DNA of 64,000 bases from Lingula anatina (GCA_051362555.1 CM120645.1:4402001-4466000); one strand, 5' to 3'; positions 16,044 to 58,850 are shown, numbered from the stretch's first letter. Numbers and translations: made by a program. Notes: generated by a model from the sequence alone, not told the origin.

Positions 16044-16094
<51 letters not shown>

Positions 16095-16979: not shown

Positions 16980-17012
<33 letters not shown>

Positions 17013-22832: not shown

Positions 22833-22876
<44 letters not shown>

Positions 22877-36450: not shown

Positions 36451-38642
36451 TTATCTGTTAAAGAACCACCAAGATCCACAGTTCGTACAAGTATTATATT
36501 CCTTCCAACATTCGTACTTCCAAACACCATAAGTAGGGATGCAATATTGTGACTCACAAATTCTATTACTGCAGGGGTTGCGTTTCTCGCGATCATGATC
36601 ACCATCTATAATATAATATAATATAATATAATATAATATAATATAATATAATATAATATAATATAATATAATATGAAAAATCAAGTTAAAAATAGTTACA
36701 CTGCGCTGACATAGCTGTACGTTTCGCAAATAATGATGATTAATGGTCAGAGATTGATTTTGTGCGTACCTTCTGGGTATTGCGTGTTGGCGCCATCTAT
36801 ATGTACAGTATTGTTGTCCATCTGAGTGAGCCAGTATGCATCAAGATCCCTGCAGAATTCTTGAATGCTGGGACTAAGGATTGTTTTGTTCTTGATCTGG
36901 GAGGCGCTAACAAAGAAGGTCAGCTGGTCATCATCATTGTGATCTTCTACATCTGACATATTTTCTGCAATTTTCTAAAAGCCAAGTGTTTAAAGTAATT
37001 ATGTTATGTGACATAGATAAAATGTTATGTCATGTCACCATAAAGTTTTGTTATTATAAGCTGTTCGCACCTTATATATGTTTTTATCTAATTTTAAAAT
37101 ATTTTTCTATATCTTAAACACCACTTAATTGAACACGTTTGTAAGTTGTTCAGAAATGTTTAATTAATATGAATAAATATCAAGTAAATCATACCTCGTG
37201 AATGTCGTCAGATGTGTTCATTGGAGTAAAAAAACAAACATACGTGTTGTTTATTTTCAGCTGGTAAATAATCAGACTCTGAAATGAATCCAACAAAGCA
37301 ATGCATGCATCTATAGTATCTTTGTGCTGAGTTAAAACAAAATCCCCTCTAAAATATCAATTTCGTCAAAAAAGTTGTCCCACATTTAGGTGCATGTGAT
37401 TATATTTACAAATTATCACCGCACAGGTGTAAACTGTTAAAACTGTGATCATGTATGCTCTCTTGTTGAAGCCTTAAGTTAACCGCAGAGACACCTCTTG
37501 CAGATGAAGGGTGATAAATTTATTTCAGATTTAAGGAGTTCATGTTACAGATTGAGAATGATGGTTTAAAATTTGGATGTCTCGCTTGTATTTTGTATCT
37601 TGTATCATTAGTCATGTTAGATGTGGTGTCTCGAACAAAAGCACTTTAAAACAGTTAACAGCTGTGGGGTAATTATTTGAAAGCAAAAGCACGTGGAATT
37701 AAAGGTGGGAATGAACACTATAGCAACATGGCTCTTTATACAGCACAATAGTTTATTTAAGCTTTTTCATCACAATCTTTTAAAAGTCGGTTAATTCGGG
37801 TATATATATCGGTACCAACAGTCCAAAGGCCCTAAAATTCGCACCTCTCTGGTCGCCGACCAAGCCCCACAACAATACGCCGCCAAGAGTACATGTAGTT
37901 TAAACAGTAAAGCGCTTGCGGCTAGTATAATTTACAAATTTCATCAACATCTATACGTTAACAGAACGCACTAACAACGTTACTTGGAACAATGTCAGTG
38001 TAAAACGTTAAAATAACATTCTCTTAACGCGTGCTGGTGGTCTAATCAGTTAATATGTGACCCTGTGGGGACATAATCTGTGTTACCTTGGAATGGATTT
38101 TGGTTGCGTTTAGGTATAGTACAAGAAAAATAAGCTTTCTTAATAATTTGTAATAAAATGATTGCTTAATTAAGTTAAAGCTGTTTTTTCTCACCCTTGA
38201 GCTGTTCATGGCAACCTGGAACTGCTCATCCGTGACGTTGTTTATGGTGACACTGTCTTCGACATTGACCTGGACATTCTCATTCTTTCTCTTGACGCCC
38301 TTGTAAAGGTGGTACTTCTGAAAAATGAAACCTTATTACGTCGATTCCGTATTGTAACGTACGTCACTGAAATTGGAAACGTCACAGTGTTGTGAGTTTC
38401 TAATACAACAAACAAATCTCAAAAGAAGTGAAAAAATGTCATTAAAGCAATTGTAGCATTGATAGAAGAAATAAAAAAATATATTATTGTAAATAAGCGT
38501 ACGTACGTGAAGTCAGAATACCCACCTTCCCCACATCCGGTGCTGCTTTTTTAGAGATGGGAACTGCTCCTAATGTTCCAACAAGAGCAACAGCAGCGAT
38601 GACAGTAACAGCAACAATGCTGTAATTCTTGTGCAGGGTCAT
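36451..38642 (-). CDS. Secreted BRICHOS-domain precursor of a 6-Cys peptide, copy 1 (227 aa)
   Basis: Exons 38642-38526 (signal peptide MTLHKNYSIVAVTVIAAVALVGTLG), 38317-38195, 37278-37195 (SLIIYQLKINNTYVCFFTPM), 36974-36770 (ILSPSIQEFCRDLDAYWL), 36605-36451 (DHDREKR|NPCSNRICESQYCIPTYGVWKYECWKEYNTCTNCGSWWFFNR*). All introns are GT-AG with phases 0,0,0,1 and there are no internal stops. BRICHOS was assigned by eye from the two-Cys pattern. Confidence 0.85.
36607..36673. repeat. (ATATA)n pentanucleotide microsatellite at the acceptor of the mature-peptide exon of copy 1
   Basis: About 13 units directly abutting the AG acceptor on the minus strand. Confidence 0.95.
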
Positions 38643-39187
38643 TGTCTGAAATATCAGAAAACAACAAAGAATAAATGTATTTTGTTATATTTAGCTATGT
38701 TGTGGTGTAATGGAAAATAAATAAATGCAACTTTTTTTAAAATATTATTTTATGAAATCCAAGAAAAGTAGTACGAGTATAAATTTGCTTCAAACTGCAA
38801 TTCCTTCTTGCAAATTTGCAGCAATTTTTTGCATATTGCTGCAAATAAGAAGCAATAAATTTCTTCTTTCAAACTCATTGCCGCCTCTGCAAAGTTTGAC
38901 TTTGCAGCAATAAAAATAAATAGAATTGCAGCAAAGTTTTTTTTTCGCTAATTTCGGATTTTAAGGGTTTTGTGTTTATTTTAAAGTCTGGATTAGGTTC
39001 GATTAGCAGATGAGCAGAATACTTAGACATAAAATGGGCCACTGTCAAGCATATAGAACAGTATACCTAGCTGTAAAGGATATGCCGAGGCATTGTCTGG
39101 AACTCAGATATCATAGAAAGGCAAATTGAGAATTTTAACTTTTAACCCATCTACTGGGTAAAATTCTACCAAGCCGGACAGCCGTAA

Positions 39188-39412
39188 TGCCCCTATTTCA
39201 CACAGACCACGAATCCTACGAATCGCCAGGAATTAACAAATTTCAGGATTCGTGGTTGAATCGTAATCAGTTCGTGATTGATCAAGAATTGCAATAACTG
39301 ACTACGAATATATACGAATCTGTTAAGAACTTCACGAACTGATTACGATTCAACCACGAATCCTGAAAGTTGTCAATTCCTGGCGATTCGTGGTCTGTGT
39401 GAAATAGGGGCA
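39188..39412. mobile_element. Foldback MITE with TAA TSD (Tourist/Harbinger-like)
   Basis: Long inverted arms starting TGCCCCTATTTCACACAGACCACGAATC, with TAA on both sides. Empty site gtcgtaagacat in unit 2 at about 52148-52160. Confidence 0.88.
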
Positions 39413-39500
39413 TAAGACATGCTGTCCCATGTTCGAACAGGTCGCCCAAATGACGTACTGAAAGGACTAGACTATGCGCTAGCTGAACGTTTACATGGAG

Positions 39501-39502
<2 letters not shown>

Positions 39503-39563
<61 letters not shown>
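39503..39563. repeat. (AT)n microsatellite
   Basis: Direct reading; expanded only in unit 1. Confidence 0.95.
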
Positions 39564-39566
<3 letters not shown>

Positions 39567-39693
39567 GACACGTCCAGGCATTGTATTGTACTCAGGTATC
39601 TAATACTGTAAGAGAAACCCCGTTGTAATCACCAGTCGGTTGGTTTTTCAGGGGTTTTTTGTTATTGGTTTTCATCAATAAGAACACTGAGAC

Positions 39694-40425
39694 TACCCTA
39701 TGTTCTAGATTTCAGTTTTGCCAGCTCGATCTTGATTTCATATATAACACATATCAATAAAACTGGCTCTAGCCACTACCGTCAACCTGCAAAATGCTGC
39801 GTGGGGCGCTTCCATATTTGGAAGTCACAATTAAGTCTCTTACGTCACAGCTATGTGCCGCATGGAGCTGCCTTTCCCGCCTTGCGCTTACCTTATCTCG
39901 TGCAGACGAGGCATGAAGCAGAGTGGCTGATGCAGAGTTTGAAGTTTGAACTAAGAATATTTTGCTATCGAAGGTCAGTGCCACAACATAAGCAACTTTC
40001 TGCCTTAAAAACTGATTTTTGTGTATAGCCACTGCGCAGTGCTCATAGTAGTATTGGGCATCCAATGTAGCTGTCAAACTTGGCACACGACAAGCACGTG
40101 CATTGTGTTTATATCTCCAGGAGCAAATGTTTTTTGTGAAGCAAAAAATACAAAAACATCTGATATATCTTTTTCTTTTAAAATATTATTTATTTTTCAA
40201 TTTACATCTTATACACAGTAAAAAAATTAAAAAACGCAAAATTAAATCTGTTGTACGTTTCATTTTGGACTAATGACATTCAACTGCAGATTCGCTGCGG
40301 AGCAGTTCGTTTTGATCGACGGATACGCCAATTTCGCTGTTCCTGAGGGCCACTGTGAAGCTATCTCATAAAAACGTTTGAATAGTTAGCAAGCTAGCTT
40401 CACAGTGGCCCTGACACTCAGGGCA
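39694..40425. mobile_element. ~730-bp insertion with 8-bp TSD (unclassified DNA transposon)
   Basis: actgagac at 39686-39693 and 40426-40433. Units 2 and 3 have a single actgagac (about 52356 and 59506). The ends TACCCT...AGGGCA are only weakly inverted, and there is a subterminal hairpin at 40346-40412. Confidence 0.6.
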
Positions 40426-40848
40426 ACTGAGACAGGCATTTATCATTTTCTACTACATGGTTAATTTCTGCAGAGCTATCTATAACGGCAAGACTCTCTA
40501 TGTATGGCTGTCCATCTCACTGTCTATTTTTGTATATCTTTTTACCTCCTATTTCATACTAATGACATTCAACTGCAGATTCGCTGCGGAGCAGTTCCTT
40601 TTGATCGACGGATACGCCAATTTCGCTGTTCCTGAGGGCCACTGTGAAGCTATCCCATAAAAACGTTTGAATAGTTAGCAAGCTAGCTTCACAGTGGCCC
40701 TGACACTCAGGGCAACTGAAACAGGCATTTATAATTTTCTACTACATGGTTAATTTCTGCAGAGCTATCTATAACGGCAAGACTCTCTATGTATGGCTGT
40801 CCATCTCACTGTCTATTTTTGTATATCTCTTTACCTCCTATTTCATAC
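40269..40848. repeat. Recent 289-bp tandem duplication
   Basis: The unit starting actaatgacattcaactgcag occurs at 40269 and 40558 with few mismatches. It spans the right end of the 730-bp insertion and its flank. Confidence 0.9.
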
Positions 40849-41499
40849 GTTTACTTAATTTACATTTTAAATGAACTTTTATAGCTGACATGCAATCTGC
40901 CACATATACATGGAACTGAATGTATTCAAACTTAATGCAAATTAAACTTTAAATTTACTTAATATTTTCCATCAGTTTAATTATATCTGAATATATCTAA
41001 AATCATATTAGTGTCAACATGACTACTGGTATTAAAGGTTTGCTAGTCATTTAGAGAATGCTGAGAGATCCACTTACTGTATGACAAACAACAGTGCGTC
41101 ATTTACGTAGAGTGTAAAACACGGCTATTGATGGAAGAGCTATATCTTTCAATATGCATTTGGTGTAAAGCTTAAAATACTGGTACTCTTTCAGCTCTGT
41201 TACAGTAGCTATTGCAGTGCATATGATTTTAGAAGGATACACTGAGAAGTTAAACGAGCCATCCAATTGCCAGGATTTTAACAAGTCCTCCAGCTGCAAG
41301 ACAAGTTCGAACAGGTCACCCAAATGACTCTGGACTGCTCTGTATAATCGTTGTATTTACACATCGGTAGTTATGTTTATCAAAGCTATATATAAATTAA
41401 ATCAAATATTCAACTATCCCAACATAAGTTCAGTAATTGTTCACTCAAATCCCAAACAAAATGATTCGTGTCACGTTCTGGTGGAGACTATGACTTAAA

Positions 41500-41981
41500 C
41501 TGGGTTCCCACAGATTTAGATCGATCCATCTGGATCGGCCTAACTCCCTGGGGGTTCACACTAAATTGCTGTTAGCTGAGCGCGCACAAAAGTTAATTAC
41601 CCCCTTACAGCTTTTAGTAGACGGGACAGACATTTAAGCCGGCTTATAAGCCGACAGCAATCTAGCGAGACTCCCCAAGGGGATAGATCGATCTAAAATG
41701 TGTGGGAATGCAGTGTTAGATTGATTCATCTGGATCGGCCTAACTTCCTGGGGGTTCACGCTAAATTGCTATCAGCTCAAGAAATATTTTTGTTCATAAG
41801 CTCTATAAAAACAATTAGGGACCATTTCCACAGATATTTGGATCGATCTATCTCCCTGGGGAGACTCACTAAATTGCTATCAAACTAACTTGCTTAAATG
41901 TCTGTCACGCCTAGCGAATCAGCTAGGGGTAAAAATAATTACCCCCTAACAGTTTTAGTAGGCGTGACAGACGTTTAAGCA

Positions 41982-41983
<2 letters not shown>
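41500..41983. mobile_element. MITE cluster upstream of BRICHOS copy 1; the last element is split by the L1 and continues at 45018-45075
   Basis: Tandem copies of the MITE family. 41842-41920 is the reverse complement of 41958-41983 joined to 45029-45075. Confidence 0.8.
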
Positions 41984-42036
<53 letters not shown>

Positions 42037-45017
42037 TCACGAAAATTAATACAAGACATGTACAACACAATAAGAGACAAATACACCTTCCACACACCAT
42101 TCACACACTACAAACGAAGTTCTTACAAATGTTGATTAAAATTACATGTAGAATTTTTTTTTAAATAAAAGAATCTTATTAGGCCTAGTCTACAACAAAT
42201 GTTCTTTTTTATTCATATCAATATTTTTTCTATACTGTCCCATTTTTTCCTTAGATTATCTGCCTTTTGAGGACCCAGTAGGTATAAAGATTGAAAATCT
42301 ATTATCTTTTGCTTTTCCAAATACTTTTTGCAGGCATTCCAAAGAGGTGTAATTTTATTTTGTCTACATAAAGTGAAATATTTCTTTATATAGAGAAGTA
42401 GTAGATTAATACCTAAGAGAGGGCTGTCGTCCAGGATTCCAAATATAAACAAGCACGGTTGATGTTTTAATTCAACAGAGTACTGTGTACGTAGGTTCTG
42501 AATGAGACAAGTCCAAATAGCTTGAACATATGTACAGTCCCAGAAAATATGCAATAAAGTTTCTTTTGGGTCATTACAGAAAGTGCATCGCTCATGTTCT
42601 AACATATTGTATTTAAAAAGCATCGAGTTCGTAAAATAAATTCTATGTAAAATTCTAAATTGCAATGTGAGAAGTTTATGATCATTGGTTTCTCGAAAGG
42701 GCAATGCATGAACTAGCTTCCACTTTTCACTTGGAAAATCAATGTTCAGCTTTTCCATCCACTTATTATGGATGTTAAGAGGTATTGCTTCCTTATCCGA
42801 AATAAATTTCGGGTAAAAGAGTTTCGTTAATTTGTTTTTCGATTTTAATAATACGAGATTTTTATTTGTTATTGCTGCAAGATTCTTTTGACACCCTCTT
42901 ATAACAGTTTTCCAGGCAGAAGGTAAAGCGCTGATGACGGCTTGATAGTCAAGGAAATTACAATCTATATTATATTCATCACAAAAAACGTCTAGACTTT
43001 TTACTGAACCAGTATTATCAATCAGGTCATTAACGTAAAGCACTCCTTTTCGAAACCAAGGTTTATAGAAGATTATCTTTTTATTAATCTTAATATGATC
43101 ATTTCCCCATAAAGGTTGTGCTAGGATATCATCCGGAGAAGTAGTAGAAAATTCTTGCACAGAAGCCCATATTCCCAAAATCTCTTTCCAGAAAGTATTT
43201 AGTATATTAATATTGCGTATAGACTGTAGGCCCTTCGAGGGAAGTAGCAATACGTCAATTCCCCCGATTTCCGCAATCTCATCCATCAAAAGAGTTTTCC
43301 ACGAAGAATAATTATGTGGATTTACCAATTTCTTTAGCCATATCAATTTAAGAGCTTTACAGAAGGATTTCACCTCGGGGACCTTTAATCCACCGTTTTC
43401 ATAAGAATTAATCATAACATTTCTCTTAACTTTATCTATTTTACTGTTCCAAATAAAGCGATAAAAAACTCGCTCCAAATCTTTAAAAAAAAGATCAGCA
43501 GGCATAGGAAGGACAGTTAATATTTGGATGATGGTAGGGAGTGCCAAGGATTTTAAAATAGTTACTTTACCTAGGAGTGAAATGTGACGGAACGACCAAT
43601 CATTTAACAACGATTTGATGGAATGTAATTTTTCTTTAAAATTTTCTTCATAAATGTCATCCTTTGCTAGGTTATACCAAATACCCAGTAGTTTAAATTT
43701 CCCACTATGATTCCAAAATATACTTTTAGAGGTTTGATACTCCTCACCACAGCAGCGCTTTGCTCCAATCCAAACAGCCTGGCTTTTTTCAAAGTTTATT
43801 TTCAATCCTGAACATTGAGAGAACAATTCTAGCATATCCAGAGCTGCATTCAATGACTCTCTATCATCTGCTAGATGAAGCGTAGAGTCATCTGCGTATT
43901 GTGTAATGACGTATTCTGAGTTATTCAGTAAGATCCCTTTTATGTTTGGATCAAATTTGACCGCCGCGCTGAGCAATTCTATGCAGATAATAAATATGTA
44001 AGGGGACAGAGGATCACCCTGTCTAACACCCCGACTGACATTAAAGAATTCTGTTAGATGTCCATTATTTTCCACTGCAGTGGAAACATTGGAGTAAAGG
44101 GTTTTGAACCAGTTTTGAATATCTTCACTAAAATTAAAAAATTTAAGACACTGCAAAATATATGCCCACTCTACAGAATCAAAAGCTTTTTCGAAATCTA
44201 GCATTAATAAAATTCCTGAAATGTCATCTTTTTCTGTTTTATGGATGATATCTTGAATAGTTCTGGAACATTCGCCTATATACCGACCTTTAACAAATCC
44301 AGCCTGTGTAAAAGAGATTATATCGTCAATGTGTAATTGGATTCTGGCTGCTATGCAAGCAGAAGCAAGTTTGTAATCAACATTCAGCAAAGTAATTGGA
44401 CGCCAATTCTTAAGGAATACTTTCTCCTTCCCCTCTTTTGGTATACACTTGATTATACCTTGGCGTTGAGATGTAGACATTGACTGTACCTCAAAGGATT
44501 TATTCAGTGACCTAAGCAGAGGCTCTTTAAGATCAGTCCAAAAGAATTTATAGAATTCTACCGTATAGCCATCTAAACCAGGAGATTTTCCATTCTTCAT
44601 TTTCTTAAGTACTTTGAGACATTCTGTTTGGGACAGAGAGCCATTCATAGTAATCTTTTTTTCTTCTGGAAGTTTTTTAATAAATGGATTTTCGTCATTG
44701 AAAAAGGTATAACTATGGACGTTATCCATTAGAGTGTCTTTTGATTGGTATAAATCGCTATAGTAGCTTTTTTGTTCTTTTAAGATATCGTGAATATTTG
44801 TTATTTCTTTTCCGTCCTTCCTCCTCAATTTAGATATCGATTTCTCACAATAATTCCTTTTTTCTAAATTAAGAAAATATTTTGAACTTTTTTCTCCTTC
44901 TACTTTCCATTTTGCTTTTGCCCTTAAAATAATCCCCTCAATTTTTTTGTCACGTATACTTTTCAATTCATCTTCTTTTCCCCGAATTGCCAACCGAATA
45001 GTCTCATCATCTCTGTT
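41984..45017 (-). mobile_element. 5'-truncated L1/Tx1-group LINE with poly(A) tail and target-site duplication
   Basis: About 50 nt of poly(T) at 41984-42034 (minus strand AATAAA runs into the tail). TSD gtttaagcaag at 41973-41983 and 45018-45028. The ORF lacks the endonuclease domain. Confidence 0.93.
42213..44993 (-). CDS. L1/Tx1 ORF2 fragment (RT + zf-RVT/CCHC), no native start
   Basis: 926 uninterrupted codons with motifs EGEKSSKYF, KSPGLDG, NWRPITLLNVDYK, LDFEKAFDSV, GVRQGDPLSP, QYADD, GGLKVP and CTFC..ETLLHIFWDC. Confidence 0.9.
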   Translation of the reverse strand: MAIRGKEDELKSIRDKKIEGIILRAKAKWKVEGEKSSKYFLNLEKRNYCEKSISKLRRKDGKEITNIHDILKEQKSYYSDLYQSKDTLMDNVHSYTFFNDENPFIKKLPEEKKITMNGSLSQTECLKVLKKMKNGKSPGLDGYTVEFYKFFWTDLKEPLLRSLNKSFEVQSMSTSQRQGIIKCIPKEGKEKVFLKNWRPITLLNVDYKLASACIAARIQLHIDDIISFTQAGFVKGRYIGECSRTIQDIIHKTEKDDISGILLMLDFEKAFDSVEWAYILQCLKFFNFSEDIQNWFKTLYSNVSTAVENNGHLTEFFNVSRGVRQGDPLSPYIFIICIELLSAAVKFDPNIKGILLNNSEYVITQYADDSTLHLADDRESLNAALDMLELFSQCSGLKINFEKSQAVWIGAKRCCGEEYQTSKSIFWNHSGKFKLLGIWYNLAKDDIYEENFKEKLHSIKSLLNDWSFRHISLLGKVTILKSLALPTIIQILTVLPMPADLFFKDLERVFYRFIWNSKIDKVKRNVMINSYENGGLKVPEVKSFCKALKLIWLKKLVNPHNYSSWKTLLMDEIAEIGGIDVLLLPSKGLQSIRNINILNTFWKEILGIWASVQEFSTTSPDDILAQPLWGNDHIKINKKIIFYKPWFRKGVLYVNDLIDNTGSVKSLDVFCDEYNIDCNFLDYQAVISALPSAWKTVIRGCQKNLAAITNKNLVLLKSKNKLTKLFYPKFISDKEAIPLNIHNKWMEKLNIDFPSEKWKLVHALPFRETNDHKLLTLQFRILHRIYFTNSMLFKYNMLEHERCTFCNDPKETLLHIFWDCTYVQAIWTCLIQNLRTQYSVELKHQPCLFIFGILDDSPLLGINLLLLYIKKYFTLCRQNKITPLWNACKKYLEKQKIIDFQSLYLLGPQKADNLRKKWDSIEKILI

Positions 45018-45354
45018 GTTTAAGCAAGTTAGTTTGATAGCAATTTAGTGAGACTCCCCAGGGAGATAGATCGATTTCTGATATTGTGCTTTAACATACA
45101 GGCGCGCCTCAGGTTTGTAGTCTGTCGCAATGATTATAAAGCTTTTCACAAATGATTGTGTTTCGTCCCATGAGAGTAATTGTGTCACTTGAAGTTTGCT
45201 GATTACAGTGATGGCTACTTTAATTGGTTTATTTATAGTGATAATGATGAGGCCTGGTAGGCAGTGGTGGATTTGGGGGGGGGGGGGGGGGGGGGGGGCA
45301 GGGGGGTCCAGACCCTTCAAATAATCCTGGATTCGCCTCTGGGTACAGAAGCAA

Positions 45355-45800
45355 CATATTATCAAACTTTCACGAGTGTATAATTGAGATTTTTTTAGCA
45401 TTTGCAATCAGTGTGGTATTGACGTGCCACTAAAGAAGACCGCAAGTGTTGAGATGACATCTACGTGTAGTAAAATCATTGGTCTTGATCTCCTCTCTGT
45501 AAGTGCCATTTACATTTAAACAGATAGATAAGAAGCAAAAAAACAGAAAAAGGATCATTTTTGACTTTACCCGCCCTGCAGATGGTACTTTTTAGAATTT
45601 ATTACTGATTAAGAATATTGTCAGACTTCGCTCAGAACTTATTTACGGCCTTACATAAATTCTTTTGAGTAACAAATAAATCTTCAGTGTTTGGTGTTCA
45701 ATTTTTTTTTAAATTTATTACTGATTAACTGCAGACTTTACACTTTCAAAGGACTCAGAGATGTTTAAAGCATTTTTATCCACCCGCTGTTGCTTCTTTT
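45355..45800 (+). mobile_element. Degenerate Rex1/Babar-type LINE remnant (unit 2)
   Basis: FAISVWY*RATKEDRK..SKIIGLDL translation; near-identical to 55130-55570. Confidence 0.55.
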
Positions 45801-45844
45801 AACAAATCATATAATAATAAGAAGATAAATATTTATATTATTAA

Positions 45845-46778: not shown

Positions 46779-47114
46779 TAACAACAGTAAATTGTGACCT
46801 TACACTTTATACATTTTACCCGGATAGCAATTCCATTTCCGTTGTATGTGATTAATGACTAAATATACACTTACATCTTACTTATCTTAGGAATGCTATA
46901 GGATCATACAAGGGATTTTCCCAAGGGAAACGTTTGGCATGAAATACAAATAACATCTTTATGTCTCTTGGATAGCATACTTGGAAGTATCAATAAAGGA
47001 CAAACACAAGTATTATGCTCGAAATTTGGCCGGTGACTACCGCATTTATTAAAGTGGCGGATTTGGGGATGCCAGAAGAGGTGACAAACCCATCAAACAC
47101 AAATTATTATAATG

Positions 47115-50100
47115 TTATAGGAACGGTACCACTATAATATCCTCCTTTGTTAAAGATAAACGCTCTTTTTGAGATAAATATAGTGACCACTTAAAACCTC
47201 TGCATTTTTCACAAGAAAAATGAAATCTGTCAAAACAAGTGTAATTCAAAACATAATCCCAAATACCGGGGCATCTGCGTACCACACAGTTATAATAGCC
47301 ACAGTGGAAGCGTTTCTGGCGATCATGAACATCTCCTGAAATAAGATATGATATAATATGATATAATCCCCTATGCATTCTACACATAAAGAAAAAATAA
47401 GTCCACTGTACTGATCCACTGCACTGACGTCACTGTACATATCACAAGTAATGATGATTAATGGTCAGAAATTTATTTTGTGCGTACCTTCTGGGTATTG
47501 CGTGTTGGCGCCATCTATATGTACAGTATTGCTGTCCATGTGAGTGAGCCAGTATGCATCAAGATCCCTGCAGAATTCCTGAATGCTGGGACTAAGGATT
47601 GTTTTGTTCTTGATCTGGAAGGCGATGAGAAAGACGTTCATTTGGACTTCATCATTGCCATCTTCTTCATCTGACATATTTCCTACAATGTTCTGAAAGC
47701 AAAGTGTTTAAAGTTATATGTTATGTTATATTATGTTATATAACACAGGTATGTCACTGTAAATGTTTAGTTATTAAAAGCTATTACATCTTACATTATG
47801 TTTTATCTAATTCAAAATCTTTTTCTGTATTTTAAACACCACTTATTTAAACATGTTTTCAAGTAGTTTAAGAATGTTTAAGAATATGAATAAATATCAA
47901 TACCCCGTGAGCCTCCTCAGATGTGTTCATTGGAGTCAATAAACAAACATACGTGTTGTTAATTTCCATCTTGTAAATAATCAGACTCTGAAATGAACCC
48001 AACAAGGCAAATTTGTAGGTATTTATTGCATATCTGTACATAATGTTTGCAAAAAGAGCGCATAGTAGTACATTCAGTTATTAATTCTTCGGATTTAATG
48101 TCAGGGATTCTTTAAGCGTATTGAAAGCCCTTATCATACAAGTACTGAAAGTGAGGTTTTTCCTGCATCTATTATTCAATAATACGTCTATAGTAGCTTT
48201 GTGCTGATTGAATCCAATAAAAATTTTAAAAAAGATTTTTAAAAACTATAAAATATTGGCGTTCATATGTGAATAGGAGCAGACGACCGTGAAGTACAAT
48301 TCAAAGGAAATGTCAACACTTGATTTTTTCCACAGCTGGATTTATTCACTCTTGTGGTAGCTGACCTTGCGAGCACTTTGATTGAGGTGTATTCTCTTGG
48401 TCAAAAAGGTTGTCCCACATTCTGGACATGTGATTACAGGGTATATTCGCAAATTATCACCGCACAGGTGTAAACTGTTATTAACTGTGCTTTTTATGCT
48501 AAATACCATATTTAACATGACTCATGGTATATAAAATATAAAGTACCGGTGAAGATATCCGTATTTTATACAAAATCATTCAAAATTTTGACAAGCACCC
48601 CCTCATATGTGATGTTCTAATGTGATTTAAATAGATATAAAAATGTCTATTGAACTGAAAATGTACAAAAATGTACAAAAATTAGCAACCTTATGCACTT
48701 GGTGAAAGTCACATCTACATGCGAATCTGTCTACTGCGTACTGCAATAATCTCTTGTAGACGGTGCAGCATGACTTCAACTAACAATTGCAATAATTCTG
48801 TTTTGTAGAATATTGTCCCGTTCTTCCTAAAAGTTAGCCGGAGTTGGCCGCGATCATTTGGAGGCTTATTCCCCTTTGCATTGCACATGTGCTAATTCAT
48901 GTTGCAGGCGCTCAGTAGGGTTAATATCAAGGCTCCACCTTTGTTTCTGCAACAAATTATTCAGCAGAATTTATCTGTGAGCATGTATGCTCTCATGATA
49001 AAGCCTTAACTTATCCGCGAAGACACCTCTTGCACATGGAGGGAGATAATTTTTTTTTTTCAGATTTAAGGAGATCGTATTGCAGTTTGAGAATGATGGT
49101 TTAAAATTAGGATTTCTCACCGGTATTTTGTTTCTTGTATCATTAGTCATGTTAGTTATGGTATCTCGAACAAAAGCACTGTTTTAAATAGCTGTTAGGT
49201 GATCATTTGAAAGCAAAAGCACGAGGAATTAGAGGTGGGAATGAAAATTACAACATGGCTCTTTATTCAGCATAATAGTTTATTTAAGCTTTTTTCATCA
49301 CAAGCTTAAGTCGGTTATTTCGGGTATATACCAACAGTCTGAAGGCCTTAAAATTCGCACCTCTCTGGTCGCCAACTAAGCCCTACAACAATAAGCCGCC
49401 AAGTGAACATGTAGTTTAAACAGCGTAAAGCGCTTGTGGCTCGTATAATTTGCAAATTTCATCAACATCTATACGTTAACAGAACTCGCTGGCAACGTTA
49501 CTTGGAACAATGTCAGCGTAGAACGTTAAAATCACATTCTCTTAACGCGTGCTGGTGGTCTAATCAGTTAATATGTAACCCTGTGGGGACGTAATCTGTG
49601 TTACCTTGGAATGGATATTGGTTGCGTTTAGGTATAGTACAAGCAAAATTAGCTTTCCTAATGATTTGTAATTAAATAATTACTTAATTAAGTTAAAACT
49701 GTTTTTTTCTCACCTTTAAGTTGTACACGGTGAAATTGTCTTCGACATTGACCTGGACATTCTCATTCTCTCTCTTGACGCCTTTGGGAAGGTGGTACTT
49801 CTGAAAAACGAAACCTAATTACGTCGATTCCGTATTGTAACGTCACTGAAATTGAAAACGTCACATTGTTGTGAGTTTCTAATACAACAAACATATCTCA
49901 AAGGAAGTGAAAAAATATCATTAAAGCACTTGTATCATTGATAGAAGAAATTAAAAATATATATTATTGTAAATAAGCGTACATACGTGAAGTCAGAATA
50001 CCCACCTTCCCCACATCCGGTGCTGCTTTTTTAGAGATGGGAACAGCTTCTAATATTCCAACAAGAGCAACAGCAGCAATGACAGTAACAGCAACAATGC

Positions 50101-50122
50101 TGTAATTCTTCTGCAGGGCCAT
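47115..50122 (-). CDS. Secreted BRICHOS-domain precursor of a 6-Cys peptide, copy 2 (237 aa)
   Basis: Exons 50122-50006, 49800-49714 (in-frame deletion relative to copies 1 and 3), 47987-47904, 47692-47488, 47335-47115 (DRQKR|FHCGYYNCVVRRCPGIWDYVLNYTCFDRFHFSCEKCRGFKWSLYLSQKERLSLTKEDIIVVPFL*). AATAAA on the minus strand at 47045-47050. Confidence 0.85.
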
Positions 50123-53100
50123 CGTCTGAAATATCAGAAAACAACAAATGATAAATGTATTTTGTTATATGTAGCTATGTTGTGGTGTAACGGAAAATAA
50201 ATATGTACAACTTTTTAAAGCATCATTTCATGAAATCCAGGAAAATTATTTCTTCTTTTTAACTCATTGCCGCCTCTTCAAAGTTTGACTTTGCAGCAAT
50301 ATTGCTTCAAAATTGCAGTAAAGTTTTATTTCGCTAATTTCGGATTTTAAGGGGTTTGTGTTTATTTAAAGGTCTGGATAAGTTTTGATGAGCAGAATAC
50401 TTAGACATAAAAGGGGACACTGTCAAGCATATAGAACAATATACCTAGCTGTAAAGGATGTGCCGAGGCATTGTCTGGAACTCAGATATCCTAACAGCTA
50501 GTTTTGTACAGTAGAAAAAAAACATTTATGTTCACAAGCACAACGAAGCTCTGTTTTTGCTCCAAATTAAGTAAGATAAGTCCATATGACTGAAATTGTC
50601 ATTTATTAATGACGAAAACTAAAAAGATACAAAGTTACAAAACTGGGGAGATAATAAACATCCCCCAAACTATATAAGTGCTAAATATAAAAATAATAAA
50701 GTAAGTTTATGAAATGTAACCAGGATTAATTATGAAAAATATGAGAAATCACAACAGCTATAGGAGCAAAAAGTTGGCGGAAATGAAAATAAAAGGCTTA
50801 TGAAAAATATGAGAAATCACAACAGCTATAGGAGCAAAAAGTTGGCGCAAATGGTTGGCGCAAATGAAAATAAAAGGCAAAAGGCACATTCTAAAGCCGG
50901 CCTAGGCTGAGAGCGAGCTACGCAACCCCTACCTTTTTAGGACGGGGACGTAGGTTTCCTCATTGCTCTGACAGCCCAATCATAGAGTTGTCTCTCTTGG
51001 CCTACGTACTGCCACATATGCCCTGCATAGTACATTTACCTAACTATAGTTTTAAAGTAATAATCTCACATGTATGATATATATCAATAAACAAATGATA
51101 ACCAGATAATCTGAAATGACTAATTAAGGTGCCAAATGAGTTATAGCTAACAAGCATAAATACAACCATGTTACATTGAGCCAATGCTCAAATCTGCTTC
51201 ATTAGTCATGAAAAGAGAAAAAAAATATTGGAGGGGGGGGGGGGGGGGAGTTTGAATAAGTTTACCAAACATCACCTTAAAAATTTTACTCCTGAATAAT
51301 GCACTTCTGAATGTTGTGAATATTACGAGAAAAGTGAGGGAGAGCATTAACTGTCTCCTGAATAACTGAACTCTTATGCCTCCGATTAGCAGGCCTTCCA
51401 GAGGCAAAGTGGCACTGTCCAATTAGGTGCCCCCCTTAACACAGGTGCCGCTTGAAAGTAAATAAGTCTAAGTGTTAAAAACACCACAAGGATGAAGGCA
51501 GGTGGTAGGGGAGGGTGGAGGGTGTACAAATAACAATAAAGAAACGTAAGTAATAATACAGTGTAGCTGCTAAAACTGCGGGTAAATATATCCGCAGCTA
51601 CGAAGCTGAATGACTTCTCACTGAATGCAGCTCGATGGAATTAATCTCCAAAACATCTTTCATAGATTATACTTGTGTGTGCCTTGATACACAGCAGCTA
51701 AGACATTCCTTAACCCTGGACATCTGTTATCACCTTGTCTTGGTCAACTACTTAAGGTCAAAATGTGCACAAGACCCAAACAAAACGTTGATGTATTACC
51801 AAAAAGTTAATAGCACCACTAAAACAAACCATTTGCTACATAAATACAATTAATTCTCTTAATTGTAGTTTGTCTGAAGTTAGAGAGATCCCTTCTGAAT
51901 GTCAAGAGGCCTGCTAATGACAATCATAACAGATGCAGCTGTGCGTTACCCGCTTAAAAACAATTAACGGTTAAAGATGGAAGGGATATACTGGTATGTT
52001 TAATTTGCAGTCGGCATAAAGCTTAAAATGTGTTCAGGGTGCAGTTACTATAGCAGTGTCCATGATTTTAAATCATATCATAGAAAGTCAATTTGAGAAT
52101 TTTAACTTTTAAGCCATCCAGTCGGTAAAATTCTATCAAGCCGGACAGTCGTAAGACATGCCGTCCCATGTTCGAACAGGTAGCCCAAATGACGTACTGA
52201 AAAGATTGGACTGTTCGCTAGCTGAACGTTTACCTGGAGCAATATATAGTATACCTAAAGGACACGTCTAGGCATTGTCTGGTATCCTATACTGTAAGAA
52301 TCAAGTCGGTTGGTTTTTCAGGCGGTTTTGTTATTGGTTTTCATCAATAAGAAAACTGAGACAGGCATTTATCATTTTCTACTACATGGTTAATTTCTGC
52401 AGAACTATCTATAACTGCAAGACTCTTTCTATGTATGGCTGTCCATCTCACTATTTTTGTATATCTCTTTGCCTCCTATTTCATACGTTTACTTAATTTA
52501 CATTTTAAATGAACTTTTATAGCTGACATGCAACCTGTCCTATATACATGGAACTGAATGTAATCAAACTTAATGCTCATTACACTATAAATTTACTTAC
52601 TATTTTCCATCAATTTAATTATATCTCAATATATATCTAAAATAATATCAGTTTCAACATGACTACTGGTATTAAGGGTTTGCTAGTCATTTAAAGAATG
52701 CTGAGAAATCCACTTATGGCAAGAAACAGTGTCATTTACGTAGAGTGTAAAACAAACACACGGCTATTGATGGAAGAGCTATATCTTTCAATATGCATTC
52801 GGTGTAAAGCTTAAAATACTGGTACTCTTTCAGCTCGGTTACAGTAGTTATTGCAGTGCATATGATTTTAGAAGGACACACTGAGAAGTTAAACAAGCCA
52901 TGCAACTGCCAGGATTTTAACAAGTCCTCCAGCTGCAAGACAGGGCGTCCTCTGTTCCAACAGGTCACCCAAATGACTCTGGACTGCTCAGTGACTAATT
53001 GTTCAAGTGGAGCACTTACCCCGTATAATCGTTGTATTTACACATTGGTAGTTTTGTTTATCAAAGCTATATGAATATTAAATCAAATATTCAAATATTC

Positions 53101-53194
53101 CAACATAAGTTCAGTAATTGTTCACTCAAATCCCAAACAAAATGATTCATGTCACACACTGGTGGAGACTAAGACTGGGTTCCCATACTCAAGC

Positions 53195-53711
53195 TGGGTT
53201 CTCACAGATTTAGATCAATCCATTTGGGTCGGCCTAACTCCCTGGGGGTTCAAGCTAAATTTCTGTCTGCCGAGCGTGCACGAAAATTAATTACCCCCTT
53301 ACAGCTTTTAGTAGACAAGACAGAGATTTAAGCCGGCTAAGCCGACAGCAATCTAGCAAGACTCCCCAAGGGGATAGATCGATCTAAAATGTGTGTTAAT
53401 GCAGTGTTAGATCCATCCATCTGGATCGACCTAACTCCCTGGGGGTTCACGCTAAATAGCTGTCAGTCGGGCGGACATGAATGTTAATTACCCCCATACA
53501 GCTTGTAGTAGGCGGGACGGACATTTAAGCCGGGTTATCTGACAGTAATCTAGTGAGACTCCCCGTGGGGATAGATCGATCTAAAAGCTCTATGAATACA
53601 GCCGAACTGTTTTACTAGGCGTGACAGACGTTTAAGCCGGTTAGTTTGATAGAAATTTAGTGAGACTCCCCAGGGAGATAGATGGATCCAAATATCTGTG
53701 GAAATGGTCCC
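53195..53711. mobile_element. MITE cluster upstream of BRICHOS copy 2
   Basis: Two tandem copies plus a right arm ending atatctgtggaaatggtccc|taa. Confidence 0.8.
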
Positions 53712-54899
53712 TAATTGTTTTTATGGAGCAAATGAACAAAAATGTTTTGCATCAAGAGGTAAGACTGTATTTTGGATTTGAGAACTAATCCTGAAACCAC
53801 CAATCGACCAGTCAAATTACCCATGACCCCAAACCACAACAAAAGGTGACATTTCGGGCAATACCCTGCATGCTGGGAAATGTTTTTTTGACCTCTCACG
53901 AGTTTATTTTCATTTTTCCCTCACAACACAGATTCTCCATGTTTAGTGGTACTTTCAAAGCCCAGATTTTAGTTGAATATGCGAGTTCTGTATAAAAGAT
54001 ACGCATGCAATACAGAATCAGTACTTCCTACTCCAATGCAAAACTGATGTAAAATAAAACTAGACATATTCTATATAGTTCAAAAATATTTTAACCGTTA
54101 CTATGAAAAACTGCTGCATAGATTTATCATTTTTACAAATGGCTGCACATTCAAGGATGAATACTTATAACTAAGGTAAATATAACAACCTACTTGTATA
54201 TCTTGTAGGACCGTTTATGTTGTAGAAAAACGTCTGGTAGTTAATGATGCTCACAATTTTCCAAATGCGCTGTGACTATAGAGTTCATATTGTTTAAAAC
54301 ATCCCGTTAACCCGGGGGGAGCACACCTAGGAGGGTCAGGTATGGATTCTTATATACACTGTAATGTACACTGTAATAGTCCTATAGTTTGGCCCATGGA
54401 TGCGTACTTCTGAATGCCCTTTCTTTGTTTTAAGCACAATGAATTGTATTTTAAGAAACTAGGTAATGCAATTTACCCAAAACACTACCTTCTGCGTTTC
54501 ACTTTTCCTCAATAATTTGCACCCGACGAAATCTGTAGTGCTCCTCCCGGGAAATAATCATAGGTTTATGGTAGGCAGCCTTATAGGGGTGCTTTTATCT
54601 GCATATTTGGTATCAATCTATTAGAAAGTACCTGTATAAACTCGTTGTAGACTGATTAAAGCAGAATAACCTGTGCCCAAGTGGGAGGCGTGCGCCATAT
54701 TTTCAAGACCTTATCCTTCTCATCAACACTTTCAACCCATAACTACTAGGTGATGGTTTGCCATGTCATTACACTGAAGCAAATTGACAAATCTGGCCAT
54801 GGGAACCTGTACGAATTTCCAAGCATGTATTAACAAAAAAACTCCAGGTTTTAACTCCTTGGATAGCTGCAAGCTATCGCTTTGCTCTCAGCGAGTTTC

Positions 54900-55570
54900 T
54901 CTAGCTTGGAACACAACTAAAAAATCATCCCTGTGCCGAAGTCTAAAACAGTTTACGAACCATCTCTGGCTGGGCGTGTGGACTCCAAGTCCGATTCTTG
55001 TGAAACTGGTTTTATCGTATATATTAAAACCACCTTACCAGAGTCACAATTTGCATATAGAAGCAATAGAAGCGTGGACGACGTCCTCAGTTTGTGCATG
55101 CACAACGTTTTAGAATATATATATATATATAATCAAACTTTTACAAGTGTATAATTGTACATTTGCAATCAGTGTGGTATTGACGTGCCACTAAAGAAGA
55201 CCGCAAGTGTTGAGATGTGGTGATGTGACATCTACGTGTAGTAAAATCATTGGTCTTGATCTCCCCTCTGTAGGTGCCATTTACATTTACACAGATTGAT
55301 AAGAAGCGAACAACTGAAAAACTATCATTTTTGACTTTACCCGCCCTGCAAATGGTACTTTTTAAAAATTATTACTGATAAAGAATATTGTCATACTTCG
55401 CTCAGAACTTATTTACGGCCTTACATAAATTCTTTTGAGTAACAAATAAATCTTCAGTGTTCGGTGTTCAGTATTTTTTAAATTTATTACTGATTAACTG
55501 CAGACTTTAAACTTCCAAAGGACTCAGAGATGTTTAAAGCATTTTTATCAATCCGCTGTTGCTCATTTTA
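54900..55570 (+). mobile_element. Degenerate Rex1/Babar-type LINE remnant (unit 3)
   Basis: QFAYRSNRSVDDVLSLCMHNVLEY (compare Rex1 QFAYRxNRSTDDAI) followed, after an internal deletion, by FAISVWY..SKIIGLDLPSVGAIY. Confidence 0.65.
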
Positions 55571-55965
55571 ACAAATCATTTAATAATAAGAAGAGAAACA
55601 TTTATATTATTAGCAACAGTAAATTGTGACCTTACACTTTATACATTTTACCAGAATGGCAATTCCATTTCCGTTGGATGTGAAAGTAACATTTGTTTAT
55701 TAATTCCTAAATATAAACGCATCTAATTATCTTAGGAATGCTATAGCATCATATAGGGAATTTTCGCAAGGGAAACATTTGGCATACAATACAAGTAAAT
55801 ATCTTTATGTCTCTTGGATAGCATACTTGAAAGTATCAATAAAGGACAAACACAAGTATTATGCTCCAAATTTGGCCGGTGACGACCGCATTTATTAAAG
55901 TGGCTTATTTGGGGGTGTCAGAAGAGGCGACAAACACAAATCAAACACAAATTATTATAATGTTA

Positions 55966-58850
55966 TCAGAACGGAAACACTATGATACCTTCCCTATTTT
56001 TCAAAATAGTACGGTCTTCTGCAGATAAATATAGTATCCAGTGACCTCCGCAGTTATCACAAGGAAAATGAGATATGTTAAAACAAGTGTGCTTCCAACC
56101 ATTTTCCAAAATAGGGCCGCATCTACGTATCACACAAAAATAATAGCCACAGTAGGAGCGTTTCTGGCGATCATGAACATCTCCTGAAATAAGATATGAT
56201 ATGATATAATTTCATGCATTCTACACATACATAAAAAACAAGTCCAGTACTGCACTGACGTCACTGTACATTTCGCAAGTAATGATGATTAATTGTCAGA
56301 GATTTATTTTGTGCGTACCTTCTGGGTATTGCGTATTGGTGCCATCTATATGCACAGTGTTGTTGTCCATCTGAGTGAGCCAGTATGAATCAAGATCCCT
56401 GCAGAATTCCTGAGCACTGGGACTAAGGATTGTTTTGTTCTTGATCTGGGAGGCGATGAGAAAGCCGTTCATTTGGACATCATCATTGCCATCTTCTTCA
56501 TCTGACATATTTCCTACAACGTTCTGAAACCAAAGTGTTTAAAGTTATATGTTATGTTATATTATGTTATATAACACAGGTATGTCACTGTAAATGTTTT
56601 GTTATTAAAAGCTATTACATCTTACGTTATGTTTTATCTAATTCAAAATCTTTTTCTATATGTTATACACCACTTATTTAAACATGTTTTAAGTAGTTTA
56701 AGAATGTTTAAAAATATGAATAAATATCAATACCCCATGAGCCTCCTCAGATGTGTTCATTGGAGTCAAGAAACAGGCATACGTGTTGTTTATTTCCATC
56801 TTGTAAATAATCAGACTCTGAAATGAACCCAACAAGGCAAATTTGTAGGTATTAATTGCATGCCTGTACATAATGTTTGTAAAAAGAACACATACTAGTA
56901 CATTCAGTTAATTCTTTGAATCTAATATCAGGGATTCTTTAAGGGTATTGTAAGCACTTATCATCCAGGTACCCAAAGTGAGGTTTTTCCTGCATCTATT
57001 ATTCAATAATACGTCAATAGTATCTTTGTGCTGATTGAAACCAATAAGAATATTTAAAAAAAAAAACGATAAAATATTGGCGTTCATATGTGAATAGGAG
57101 CAGACGACCGTGAAGTACAATTCAAAGGAAATGTTAACACTTGATTTTTTCCACAGCTGGATTTATTCACTCTTGTGGTAGTTGACCTTGCGAGCAATTT
57201 GATTGAGATGTATTCTCTTGGTCAAAAAGATAATATTACATTTAGGTACATGTGATAATATTCGAAAATTATCATCGCACAGGTGTAAGCTGTAATAAAC
57301 TGTACTTTTTATTCTAAATACCATATTTAACATGACTCATGGTATATAAAATATAAAGTACCGGTGGAGACATCCGTATTTTATACAATTTATTCAAAAT
57401 TATGACAAGCACCCCCTCATATGTGATGTTCTAATGTGATTTAAATAGATATGAAAGATGTCTATTGAATTGAAAATGTACAAAAATGTACAAAAATTAG
57501 CAACCGTATGCACTTGTTGAAAGTCACATCTACATGCGAATCTGTCTACTGCGTGCTGCAATGATCTCTTGTAGACGGTGCAGCATGACTTCAACCAACA
57601 ATTGCAATAATTCTGTTTTGTAGAATATTGTCCCGTTCTTCCTAAAACGTTAGCCGGAGTTGGTCGCTATCATTTGGAGGCTTATTCCCCTTTGCATTGC
57701 ACATGTGCTAATTCATGTTGCAGGCGCTCAGTGGAGTTAATATCAAGGCTCCACCTTTGTTTCTGCTACAAATCATTCAGCAGAATAGATCTGTGAGCAT
57801 GTATGCTCTCATTATTAAGCCTTAAGTTATCCGCGAAGACACCTCTTGCACATGGAGGGAGATTTTTTTTTTATTTCAGATTTAAGGAGATCGTATTGCA
57901 GATTGAGAATGATGGTTTAAAATTAGGATTTCTCGCCGGTATTTTGTTTCTCGTATCATTAGTCATGTTAGTTGTGGTATCTCGAACAAAAGCACTATTT
58001 TAAATAGTTAGCTGTTAGGTGATCATTTGAAAGCAAAAGCACGAGGAATTAGAGGTGGCCCACTGGGTATGAACACTTGAACATGGCTCTTTATTCAGCA
58101 TAATAGTTTATTTAACCTTTTTTCATCACAAGCTTAAGTTGGTTAATTCGGGTATATACCAACAGTCTGAAGGCCTTAAAATTCGCACCTCTCTGGTCGC
58201 CAACTAAGCCCTACGACAATAAGCCACCAAGTGTACATGTAGTTTAGAGAGAGTAAAGCGCTTGCGGCTCGTATAATTTGCAAATTTCATCAACATCTAT
58301 ACGTTAATTGAACTCGCTGGCAACGTTACTTGGAACAATGTCAGCGTTGAACGTTAAAATCACATTCTCTTAGCGCGTGCTGGTGGTCTAATCAGTTATA
58401 TGTCATATGTAACCCTGTGGGGACGTAATCTGTGTTACCTGGAAATGGGTATTGGTTGCGTTTAGGTATTAGCTTTCTTAATGATTTGTAATTAAATGAT
58501 TACTTAATTAAGTTAAAACTTAATTGTTTTTTCTCACCCTTGAGTTGTCCATGGCAACCTGAAACTTATCCGTGAGCTTGTACTCGGTGACATTGTCTTC
58601 AACATTGACCTGGACATTCTCATTCTCTCTCTTGCCGTCCATGTGAAGGTGGTACTTCTGAAAATCGAAACCTATTTAAATAAAAAATATATTATTGTAA
58701 ATAAGCGTACGTACGTGAAGTCAGATTACCCACCTTCCCCACATCCGGTGCTGCTTTTTTAGAGATGGGAACTGCTCCTAATGTTCCAGCAAGAGCAACA
58801 GCAGCAATGACAGTAACAGCAACAATGCTGTAATTCTTGTGCAGGGCCAT
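55966..58850 (-). CDS. Secreted BRICHOS-domain precursor of a 6-Cys peptide, copy 3 (247 aa)
   Basis: Exons 58850-58734, 58657-58538 (..FQVAMDNSR), 56817-56734 (SLIIYKMEINNTYACFLTPM), 56523-56319, 56183-55966 (DRQKR|SYCGYYFCVIRRCGPILENGWKHTCFNISHFPCDNCGGHWILYLSAEDRTILKNREGIIVFPF*). AATAAA on the minus strand at 55891-55896. Confidence 0.87.

Follow-up and report, generated by a model that had tools for sequence, protein, structure and literature searches.

What do three tandemly arranged genes in the genome of the brachiopod Lingula anatina produce, and to what end? The genes, here called A, B, and C, lie within a 64,000-nucleotide stretch of DNA (GCA_051362555.1 CM120645.1:4402001-4466000), the whole of which we refer to as the window, and each encodes a precursor in which a hydrophobic N-terminus and an acidic BRICHOS pro-region precede a six-cysteine peptide. 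On balance, we think that the products are weakly cationic host-defense peptides: secreted, BRICHOS-chaperoned, furin-released hairpins with three disulfides that would act less by charge than their Arg-rich sisters do.

Gene structures were obtained by reading the minus strand and translating it exon by exon. Gene A spans 58850-55966 (247 amino acids [aa]), gene B spans 50122-47115 (237 aa), and gene C spans 38642-36451 (227 aa). Each has five coding exons with open frames and intron phases of 0,0,0,1, and all 12 introns begin and end with GT..AG, which bears out the claim of an earlier, model-written note on this DNA that three minus-strand genes with identical exon phases are present. The same note called the precursors intact; the frames are open, but exon 2 of gene B lacks 11 codons over a predicted BRICHOS strand. 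The genes are tandem duplicates, and the duplicated unit includes flanking DNA both upstream and downstream. Their shared anatomy is not due to chance, because homologous introns of A and B are 93 to 97% identical and the exon 4/5 junction of gene C is identical in the RefSeq model XP_013383879.1. Over exons 4-5, the only ones that this model covers, it agrees with gene C in 110 of 114 residues and with the gene C peptide in 41 of 42. The database protein closest to A and B is a partial model (P0002; 76% and 72%), which is not a close match, and both genes appear to be unannotated. The coding exons are as follows.

58734..58850, minus strand: gene A coding exon 1, putative signal peptide or former anchor segment (hydropathy 2.43, 19-residue window)
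58538..58657, minus strand: gene A exon 2, linker plus the opening strands of BRICHOS, Asp kept at the likely conserved position
56734..56817, minus strand: gene A exon 3, BRICHOS with first Cys
56319..56523, minus strand: gene A exon 4, second half of BRICHOS with second Cys (PF04089 E value 0.13, below cut-off)
55966..56183, minus strand: gene A exon 5, RxKR, predicted mature peptide at 56157-55969 (63 aa, Cys spacing 4-4-11-7-2, 27-aa tail), stop
50006..50122, minus strand: gene B coding exon 1, putative signal peptide (from translation and hydropathy)
49714..49800, minus strand: gene B exon 2, in frame, 11 codons short, missing both the likely conserved Asp and a predicted strand of BRICHOS
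47904..47987, minus strand: gene B exon 3, BRICHOS with first Cys
47488..47692, minus strand: gene B exon 4, second half of BRICHOS (PF04089 E value 0.011)
47115..47335, minus strand: gene B exon 5, RxKR, predicted mature peptide at 47309-47118 (64 aa, Cys spacing 4-4-11-7-2, 28-aa tail)
38526..38642, minus strand: gene C coding exon 1, putative signal peptide (from translation and hydropathy)
38195..38317, minus strand: gene C exon 2, with Asn where the likely conserved Asp would stand
37195..37278, minus strand: gene C exon 3, BRICHOS with first Cys
36770..36974, minus strand: gene C exon 4, second half of BRICHOS (PF04089 E value 0.00034, 21.2 bits, cut-off 25; matches XP_013383879.1)
36451..36605, minus strand: gene C exon 5, preceded by a tandem array of 5-bp units, RxKR, predicted mature peptide at 36579-36454 (42 aa, Cys spacing 4-4-10-6-2)

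The pro-regions of A, B, and C are acidic and hold exactly two Cys each, as had been proposed, and sequence and model comparisons support BRICHOS homology in all three, albeit incomplete in B. Exon 4 alone matches the C-terminal half of the Pfam BRICHOS model PF04089 in every gene, at the E values given above, all under the 25-bit cut-off. Two full-length paralogs, P0003 and P0004, exceed the Pfam cut-off with 44.1 and 43.1 bits, and a profile built from 13 paralogs recovered all three spliced precursors, with E values of 1e-60 (A), 1.6e-44 (B), and 6.6e-56 (C). With an AlphaFold model of another paralog, P0019 (mean pLDDT score 42.6, low confidence), the top Foldseek match was the BRICHOS domain of proSP-C (2yad; probability 0.92, E 0.2). 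The same structure came first in VIA-align (Z 6.1, root mean square deviation 3.6, 66 residues aligned), where it was the sole chain of 48,161 with Z ≥5. A sequence search of the PDB with the family profile found no BRICHOS chain. The exon 4 matches, the paralog profile, the Pfam scores of paralogs, and the fold match all agree with the earlier placement of a BRICHOS domain in the pro-region.

The P0019 model has a strand at residues 105-112 that ends in Asp, the context of which matches that of proSP-C D105 as written in a mutagenesis primer (PMC9627735), and from this model we infer that the two residues are equivalent. The likely conserved Asp is kept in A, replaced by Asn in C, and deleted together with its strand in B. 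Single BRICHOS domains carry Asp at this position in 97% of cases and Asn in 2.7%, and Asn mutants show changed chaperone behavior, according to the excerpted text of that study (PMC9627735). The chaperone of gene B, to judge by its sequence, may be crippled.

Membership of the family beyond the window was counted from RefSeq proteins only. A HMMER search with exon 4 of gene C against 1.84 billion representatives gave five matches, four of which were L. anatina RefSeq proteins; the fifth (P0005) was discarded as unrelated, Pfam finding no BRICHOS in it. A word-based search with exon 4 returned nothing at E ≤0.01 among three candidates. P0004 as a query retrieved 13 proteins and a 13-sequence profile retrieved 15, every one from L. 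anatina, and a cluster look-up added more. Among the members are XP_013414043.1, XP_013414042.1, and XP_013389723.1, unnamed proteins labeled “uncharacterized” or “LECT1-like.” A tree of 18 pre-pro regions separated A, B, C, P0001, and P0002 from the other 13, which we call the main clade, with support of 100/100 (midpoint root; three rows half-filled or less). Window genes and four paralogs are 46 to 55% identical over the aligned part of the precursor and have RxKR and six-Cys geometry in common.

One of the 23 main-clade proteins has no RxKR, and the remainder give 15 distinct peptides, with six Cys in 10, ten in 3, seven in 1, and two in 1. Charges are +8 to +15 in 12 of these peptides and +1 to +5 in 3. 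The window clade differs from the main clade in having no cytoplasmic N-terminal tail, less Arg (5 to 8% versus 14 to 33%), and longer C-terminal tails. With pre-pro regions homologous to those of the paralogs, an RxKR site, and six Cys in nested geometry, A, B, and C group by sequence as a divergent, low-charge clade of an expanded Lingula BRICHOS family in which six Cys is the commonest peptide form. The scaffold had been described as unfamiliar and unassignable; no known peptide family or fold matched it, but it is not an orphan, since most of the Lingula paralog peptides (10 of 15) have six Cys.

Two further observations concern the family at large. P0002 (XP_013401927.1), which falls in the same clade as A, B, and C, has no exon 3, and only the first peptide Cys precedes its end; it is either a decaying copy or a mis-model elsewhere in the genome. 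Main-clade proteins P0003, P0004, and P0015-P0035 encode peptides very rich in Arg and Tyr (up to +15), ten-Cys forms included, and these unnamed proteins are, by their sequences, better candidates for classical antimicrobial peptides (AMPs) than the window genes are.

The RxKR site, a predicted furin-type cleavage site, stands ahead of the six-Cys peptide in all three genes. Cysteine spacing is 4-4-11-7-2 for both A and B, 4-4-10-6-2 for C, and 4-4-8-7-2 for P0019, so that both the R-x-K-R site and the C-x4-C-x4-C-x10/11-C-x6/7-C-x2-C pattern of the earlier note were found. Beyond the sixth Cys, 27 to 28 residues follow in A and B (mature peptides of 63 to 64 aa) and 8 follow in C. Aromatic residues make up 17 to 24% of the peptides. 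Net charge (K+R minus D+E) is +1 in A, +3 in B, and +1 in C, within the range of about +1 to +3 stated before, a value that matters because 12 of 15 paralog peptides reach +8 to +15.

If nested Cys pairs (C1-C6, C2-C5, and C3-C4) face each other across a hairpin, the sums of their positions should be nearly equal. These sums are 37, 39, and 37 in C, as in five paralogs, and 39, 41, and 38 in A and B; they differ by 2 to 3 in the window peptides and by ≤4 in 10 of 10 six-Cys paralog peptides. Spacers lengthen jointly on both strands (4/2 to 6/4 and 4/6-7 to 6/8-10), the ten-Cys paralogs place their additional Cys between the inner pair, and in the two-Cys paralog the outer pair alone remains. 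An AlphaFold model of peptide C has strands at residues 4-15 and 22-34 and no helix, and the P0019 model contains a long hairpin (strands 223-237 and 240-255, pLDDT 62 to 80 there). From the spacing and the models we predict, with low confidence, that the A, B, and C peptides form a beta-hairpin with a three-disulfide ladder.

Comparisons with known peptides were negative. Peptide C matched no solved structure (best E 3.9), found nothing of note in the ESM Atlas (0.77), and in fold searches retrieved generic hairpins only (none at E ≤0.001; best Z 3.0). A Pfam scan of the three peptides found no toxin, CS-alpha-beta defensin, or ShKT family, from the last two of which we take the Cys spacing to differ. 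A zinc-ribbon match in peptide A (E 0.017 to 0.021, below the cut-off, over 11 residues around CxxC) was set aside as a motif coincidence.

At the N-terminus, A, B, and C share with the BRICHOS superfamily a hydrophobic segment (peak hydropathy 2.43 to 2.67, from residue 9). In each gene, a TTTCAG resembling a splice acceptor precedes the start ATG by 3 nucleotides (nt); therefore, the first exon of the transcript probably lies further upstream than the first exon listed here. Full-length main-clade paralogs have a cytoplasmic tail of ~35 residues ahead of the hydrophobic stretch, a type II layout, and the first exon of the window genes aligns with the paralog anchor exon, with Met where the paralogs have Lys. 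Loose read ends from an expressed paralog, translated by eye, carry an AAG codon at the Met position and continue into the upstream frame. No upstream exon for a cytoplasmic tail was found when the window was searched by tblastn with seven paralog tails (best E 0.13), and the sole ATG-to-donor candidate common to A, B, and C was rejected as an upstream coding exon because it sits in a dispersed repeat. We consider it fairly probable from these alignments, in which the direction of change is not rooted, that the A/B/C clade gained a start codon and that the anchor became a signal peptide. The signal peptide previously assigned to each gene is thus upheld as a hydrophobic N-terminus and corrected in that the segment corresponds to the type II anchor of the paralogs. 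Both layouts, signal peptide and anchor, occur among Heteromastus BRICHOS precursors, as excerpted from PMC10745061.

Divergence is concentrated in the peptide exon. Introns of A and B retain the identity given above and their last exon is 79% identical; in the Cys core, 24 of 108 nt (22%) are different, versus 122 of 2115 nt in introns (5.8%; Fisher p 4e-8). Nonsynonymous divergence (dN) in the A/B core is 0.32 versus a synonymous divergence (dS) of 0.09 (p 0.0008 against pooled synonymous sites), and the nonsynonymous-versus-synonymous test for the A/C core gives p 0.017. The divergence of the peptide exon is accelerated, and the six peptide Cys are all retained in A, B, and C despite it.

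The layout of signal, BRICHOS domain, and processed C-terminal peptide had been likened to that of polychaete precursors, and the likeness is supported for A, B, and C. As described in the excerpted literature, annelid BRICHOS-AMP precursors (arenicin, alvinellacin, capitellacin, abarenicin, nicomicin, the HfBRI series, and AmBRI-44a) share with them a hydrophobic N-terminus, an acidic BRICHOS pro-region, a dibasic or furin site before the peptide (RxKR in 3 of 3 window genes), a Cys-containing C-terminal peptide in the last exon, and a tandem multigene family. The window genes differ in their brachiopod host, their low charge, and the tails in A and B. They have six Cys in a predicted single-hairpin ladder, whereas the annelid peptides have zero to two disulfides or, in AmBRI-44a, a defensin-like arrangement of four. 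The one to two disulfides that the earlier note ascribed to worm peptides are too few as a general rule, given the four of AmBRI-44a (PMC11767717) and the 11 Cys of HfBRI-75/91 (PMC10745061). In the Lingula genes the peptide diversifies and the chaperone is conserved; in alvinellacin the reverse holds, the last exon being monomorphic in Alvinella pompejana (PMC5431198, in excerpt). No annelid sequence appeared in any protein search with family queries, and these searches are insensitive to distant relatives. By analogy, A, B, and C appear to work like annelid BRICHOS-AMP precursors, and they belong to the BRICHOS superfamily; we claim likeness and not membership of the annelid family. The annelid peptides are clearly cationic (+3 to +6 in the table of PMC6780910) and only B reaches the bottom of that range.

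Two other systems invite comparison. Members of the BRICHOS superfamily such as proSP-C, Bri2/ITM2, chondromodulin, tenomodulin, and gastrokines resemble A, B, and C in the two-Cys domain and the beta-prone C-terminal client, and the residues around the Asp of the Lingula family match those around proSP-C D105 as given by the primer in PMC9627735. In contrast to them, the Lingula client is hypervariable and tandemly expanded, with a natural Asp-to-Asn change in C and strand loss in B. Theta-defensins, with their cyclic cystine ladder, resemble our prediction in having a single beta-hairpin with three disulfides, but they are 18-residue, backbone-cyclized primate peptides (PMC13001179, in excerpt), whereas the A, B, and C peptides are open-chain, 42 to 64 residues long, and made from a BRICHOS precursor. 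Since length, cyclization, host, and precursor all differ, the likeness would be convergent.

In the mechanism that we propose, the precursor would be secreted while its BRICHOS domain likely chaperones the aggregation-prone C-terminal peptide. A furin-type protease would cut after RxKR, and the released peptide would fold as a long beta-hairpin with cross-strand disulfides C1-C6, C2-C5, and C3-C4. The type II membrane anchor probably became a short signal peptide, and a C-terminal tail is present in A and B. The A/B/C clade, rich in Trp, Tyr, and Phe, would have lost most of its positive charge; the other Lingula family members are mostly Arg-rich hairpins. Because the clade would have lost charge, is aromatic-rich, and carries tails in A and B, we expect microbes to be recognized or killed via aromatic or hydrophobic contacts or a specific target, and not through general cationic lysis. 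We lean towards an antimicrobial role, as predicted from sequence and analogy, and the 12 of 15 paralog peptides that share the cationic chemistry of worm BRICHOS AMPs support it.

A number of observations weigh against this account. The charges of +1, +3, and +1 contrast with the +3 to +6 of worm BRICHOS AMPs. The A/B core comparison of nonsynonymous with synonymous sites is not significant when taken alone (p 0.063), the pre-pro region has dN/dS of about 0.7, 0.9, and 1.5, which indicates little purifying selection, and in the A/B tail synonymous divergence equals nonsynonymous divergence (0.41 versus 0.42). Gene conversion of the remaining gene, or relaxed constraint, may contribute to the A/B contrast; conversion could explain part of the difference between exon and introns, because the synonymous divergence of the tail is also high. 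Random placement of Cys yields ladder-compatible sums in 6 to 10% of cases, and since the paralogs are also kin, the Cys sums are support for the ladder and not proof of it. The model of peptide C is weak (best pLDDT 73, the other four 39 to 44, predicted template modeling score 0.32), and disulfide geometry lies outside the output of the tool. A profile of 11 paralog mature peptides scores A, B, and C no better than shuffled sequences (18, 39, and 58 of 300 equal or higher); it is because this similarity does not exceed composition that we call them a divergent clade.

Expression data belong on the same side. We used eight of nine same-species RNA runs that carry no tissue label (all except X6). 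Four runs mapped on A and B at 95% likeness gave depths of 0 to 0.64 over exon-holding bins. Four other runs, mapped on C at 85% likeness, which would also catch A and B, gave 0 to 0.08 in the exon 2 bin, 0 to 0.78 in the exon 3 bin, and 0 to 1.66 at the 3′ end. The junction check suggested by the earlier note was negative, with no spliced read over an A, B, or C junction among the joints listed in the eight runs, which for the runs at 85% likeness were 15 of 27. Thousands of reads in X8 and X9 fall on 36804-36878 and 38582-38632 only and continue as main-clade sequence, from which we conclude that another family member is very abundant in those runs. This main-clade paralog, whose abundance speaks for the host-defense reading, accounts for >5,000 of 10.7 million records in X8, is very abundant in two of the four runs at 85% likeness, and is scarce or absent in X3 and X5. 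The 3′ end of a neighboring transporter gene is covered and spliced in X5; therefore, the organism or a close relative is present in the runs, although X8 and X9 depart from the window at many letters.

Around the genes we found traces of duplication and transposition. Two kinds of family-derived sequence lie outside the coding exons.

59212..59265, plus strand: inverted exon 3 fragment and its donor (remnant), upstream of gene A, with 96% identity to its A and B counterparts across 49 to 54 nt
59505..60628, minus strand: upstream block duplicated with each gene (this copy A; also 52354-53466 and 40714-41775)

The three upstream blocks are candidate promoters with a TATA-like motif in common (59679, 52525, and 40887). 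Just past this motif, the upstream block of gene C carries a 289-bp tandem duplication at 40269-40848, the two copies of which are 98% identical.

Farther out, an SLC6 sodium:neurotransmitter symporter gene with several exons occupies 10377-25239 on the plus strand (PF00209 E 1.5e-34), its 3′ untranslated region (UTR) extending to about 30300. A GT..AG joint at 25263-26481, just past its last listed open frame, is crossed by 13 spliced X5 reads and is apparently a 3′ UTR intron. An apparently full-length long interspersed nuclear element (LINE) at 31425-35470 on the minus strand has open reading frames (ORFs) for ORF1 (325 aa) and ORF2 (1033 aa, with endonuclease and reverse transcriptase), and the part at 34140-36047 reaches a depth of 12 to 31 in X8 and X9. 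A second LINE, 5′-truncated, lies between B and C at 41984-45044 on the minus strand, with a 943-aa open frame (RVT_1 and zf-RVT). It looks recent, with a 51-base poly(A) tail and direct repeats of ~13 bases on both sides, and is inserted in a dispersed repeat. That repeat, partly palindromic and resembling a miniature inverted-repeat transposable element, occurs at 7003-7225, 28062-28218, 41494-41985, 53199-53747, and 60382-60822 and is abundant in RNA reads, within other transcripts. At 63333-63998 on the plus strand, an intron-free open frame of at least 222 aa with higher GC content runs off the end of the window, directed away from gene A.

An alternative hypothesis, which we consider unlikely, is that A, B, and C are secreted effectors with a non-antimicrobial job: signaling of the chondromodulin or gastrokine kind, a role in mucus, matrix, or shell, or immune recognition without killing. 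The near-neutral charge and the tails of A and B would suit it, RefSeq labels some family members LECT1-like, and worms have non-cationic BRICHOS peptides without an assigned function (PMC10745061, in excerpt). The nearest ESM Atlas clusters of P0019 are chondromodulin/LECT1 (0.91), tenomodulin (0.90), and a mostly molluscan BRICHOS group (0.89), but the comparison took in the precursor in full, and the BRICHOS domain is probably what the likeness reflects. The sister peptides, moreover, are strongly Arg-rich hairpins, and the combination found here, a hypervariable exon for a peptide whose Cys stay fixed, within a family expanding in tandem, is what defense peptides usually show.

Somewhat less probable still is that the genes are decaying paralogs under relaxed selection, heading to pseudogenes with B furthest along. 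Their near silence in 8 of 8 runs, the pre-pro dN/dS near 1, the BRICHOS deletion in B and the Asn for Asp in C, the inverted exon remnant and LINE insertions nearby, and the related RefSeq model P0002, which lacks exon 3 and stops after one Cys, all fit decay. Yet every splice pair (12 of 12) and all three frames are still in place, as are 24 of 24 Cys and the three RxKR sites, the peptide of gene C is nearly unchanged from its RefSeq allele (41 of 42 residues), and Asn is found at the Asp position in 2.7% of natural single BRICHOS domains (PMC9627735, in excerpt). The peptide exon also diverges about four times faster than the introns, and neutral decay is disfavored because neutral divergence would not exceed the intron rate.

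That the peptides are toxins or deterrents against animal predators or foulers seems very improbable: three disulfides, aromatic richness, and a conserved pro-region with a hypervariable mature peptide, as seen in many toxin families, speak for it, but the peptides matched no Pfam toxin family, solved structure, or fold, the paralogs resemble cationic AMPs, and Lingula, a burrowing filter feeder, has no known venom organ. Of the “defense or toxin” reading offered in the earlier note, defense remains the best choice, and nothing that we found supports toxin.

How novel such host-defense peptides would be depends on the literature. BRICHOS AMPs are said to occur in polychaetes only (PMC6780910), and lists of them contain annelid members only, AmBRI-44a included, in the excerpted text of PMC11767717 and PMC12466427. 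In its excerpted part, a review from 2026 on beta-hairpin AMPs (PMC13001179) speaks of three disulfides just once, in naming theta-defensins, and lists no brachiopod. A work on Lingula immunity, Gerdol et al. 2018, is cited in the excerpted text of PMC7203481. Literature searches for Lingula or brachiopods with BRICHOS or arenicin found nothing relevant, with Gerdol et al. 2018 outside their coverage, and one supplement of the Lingula genome paper contained no BRICHOS, PF04089, or antimicrobial term. Gerdol et al. 2018 is reportedly a survey of Lingula immune effectors, and it is about an even question whether it describes this Lingula family.

A bolder and more doubtful version of our reading would combine these elements. 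The family might be an undescribed set of peptides that radiated in brachiopods: BRICHOS-chaperoned hairpins with an open chain and a ladder of three disulfides, of which 18 distinct ones are counted here. The window clade could be a functional offshoot: by gaining a start codon it would have become freely secreted, positive selection would have lowered its charge, and its peptides would target microbes in a non-lytic, target-specific way, with Asp, Asn, and deletion variants of the key chaperone residue side by side.

These findings would lose value had Gerdol et al. 2018 described the family before, or should the A/B/C clade prove to be decaying. The natural series of Asp in A, Asn in C, and deletion in B would offer a way to test the effect of the conserved Asp on the folding of a native client, and the Lingula family would supply ready candidates for antibiotic screening. 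If our reading is true, the BRICHOS biosynthetic design would be broadened by brachiopod ladder hairpins with three disulfides, some of them strongly cationic and others near-neutral, and a brachiopod radiation would take BRICHOS antimicrobial peptides outside the annelids.

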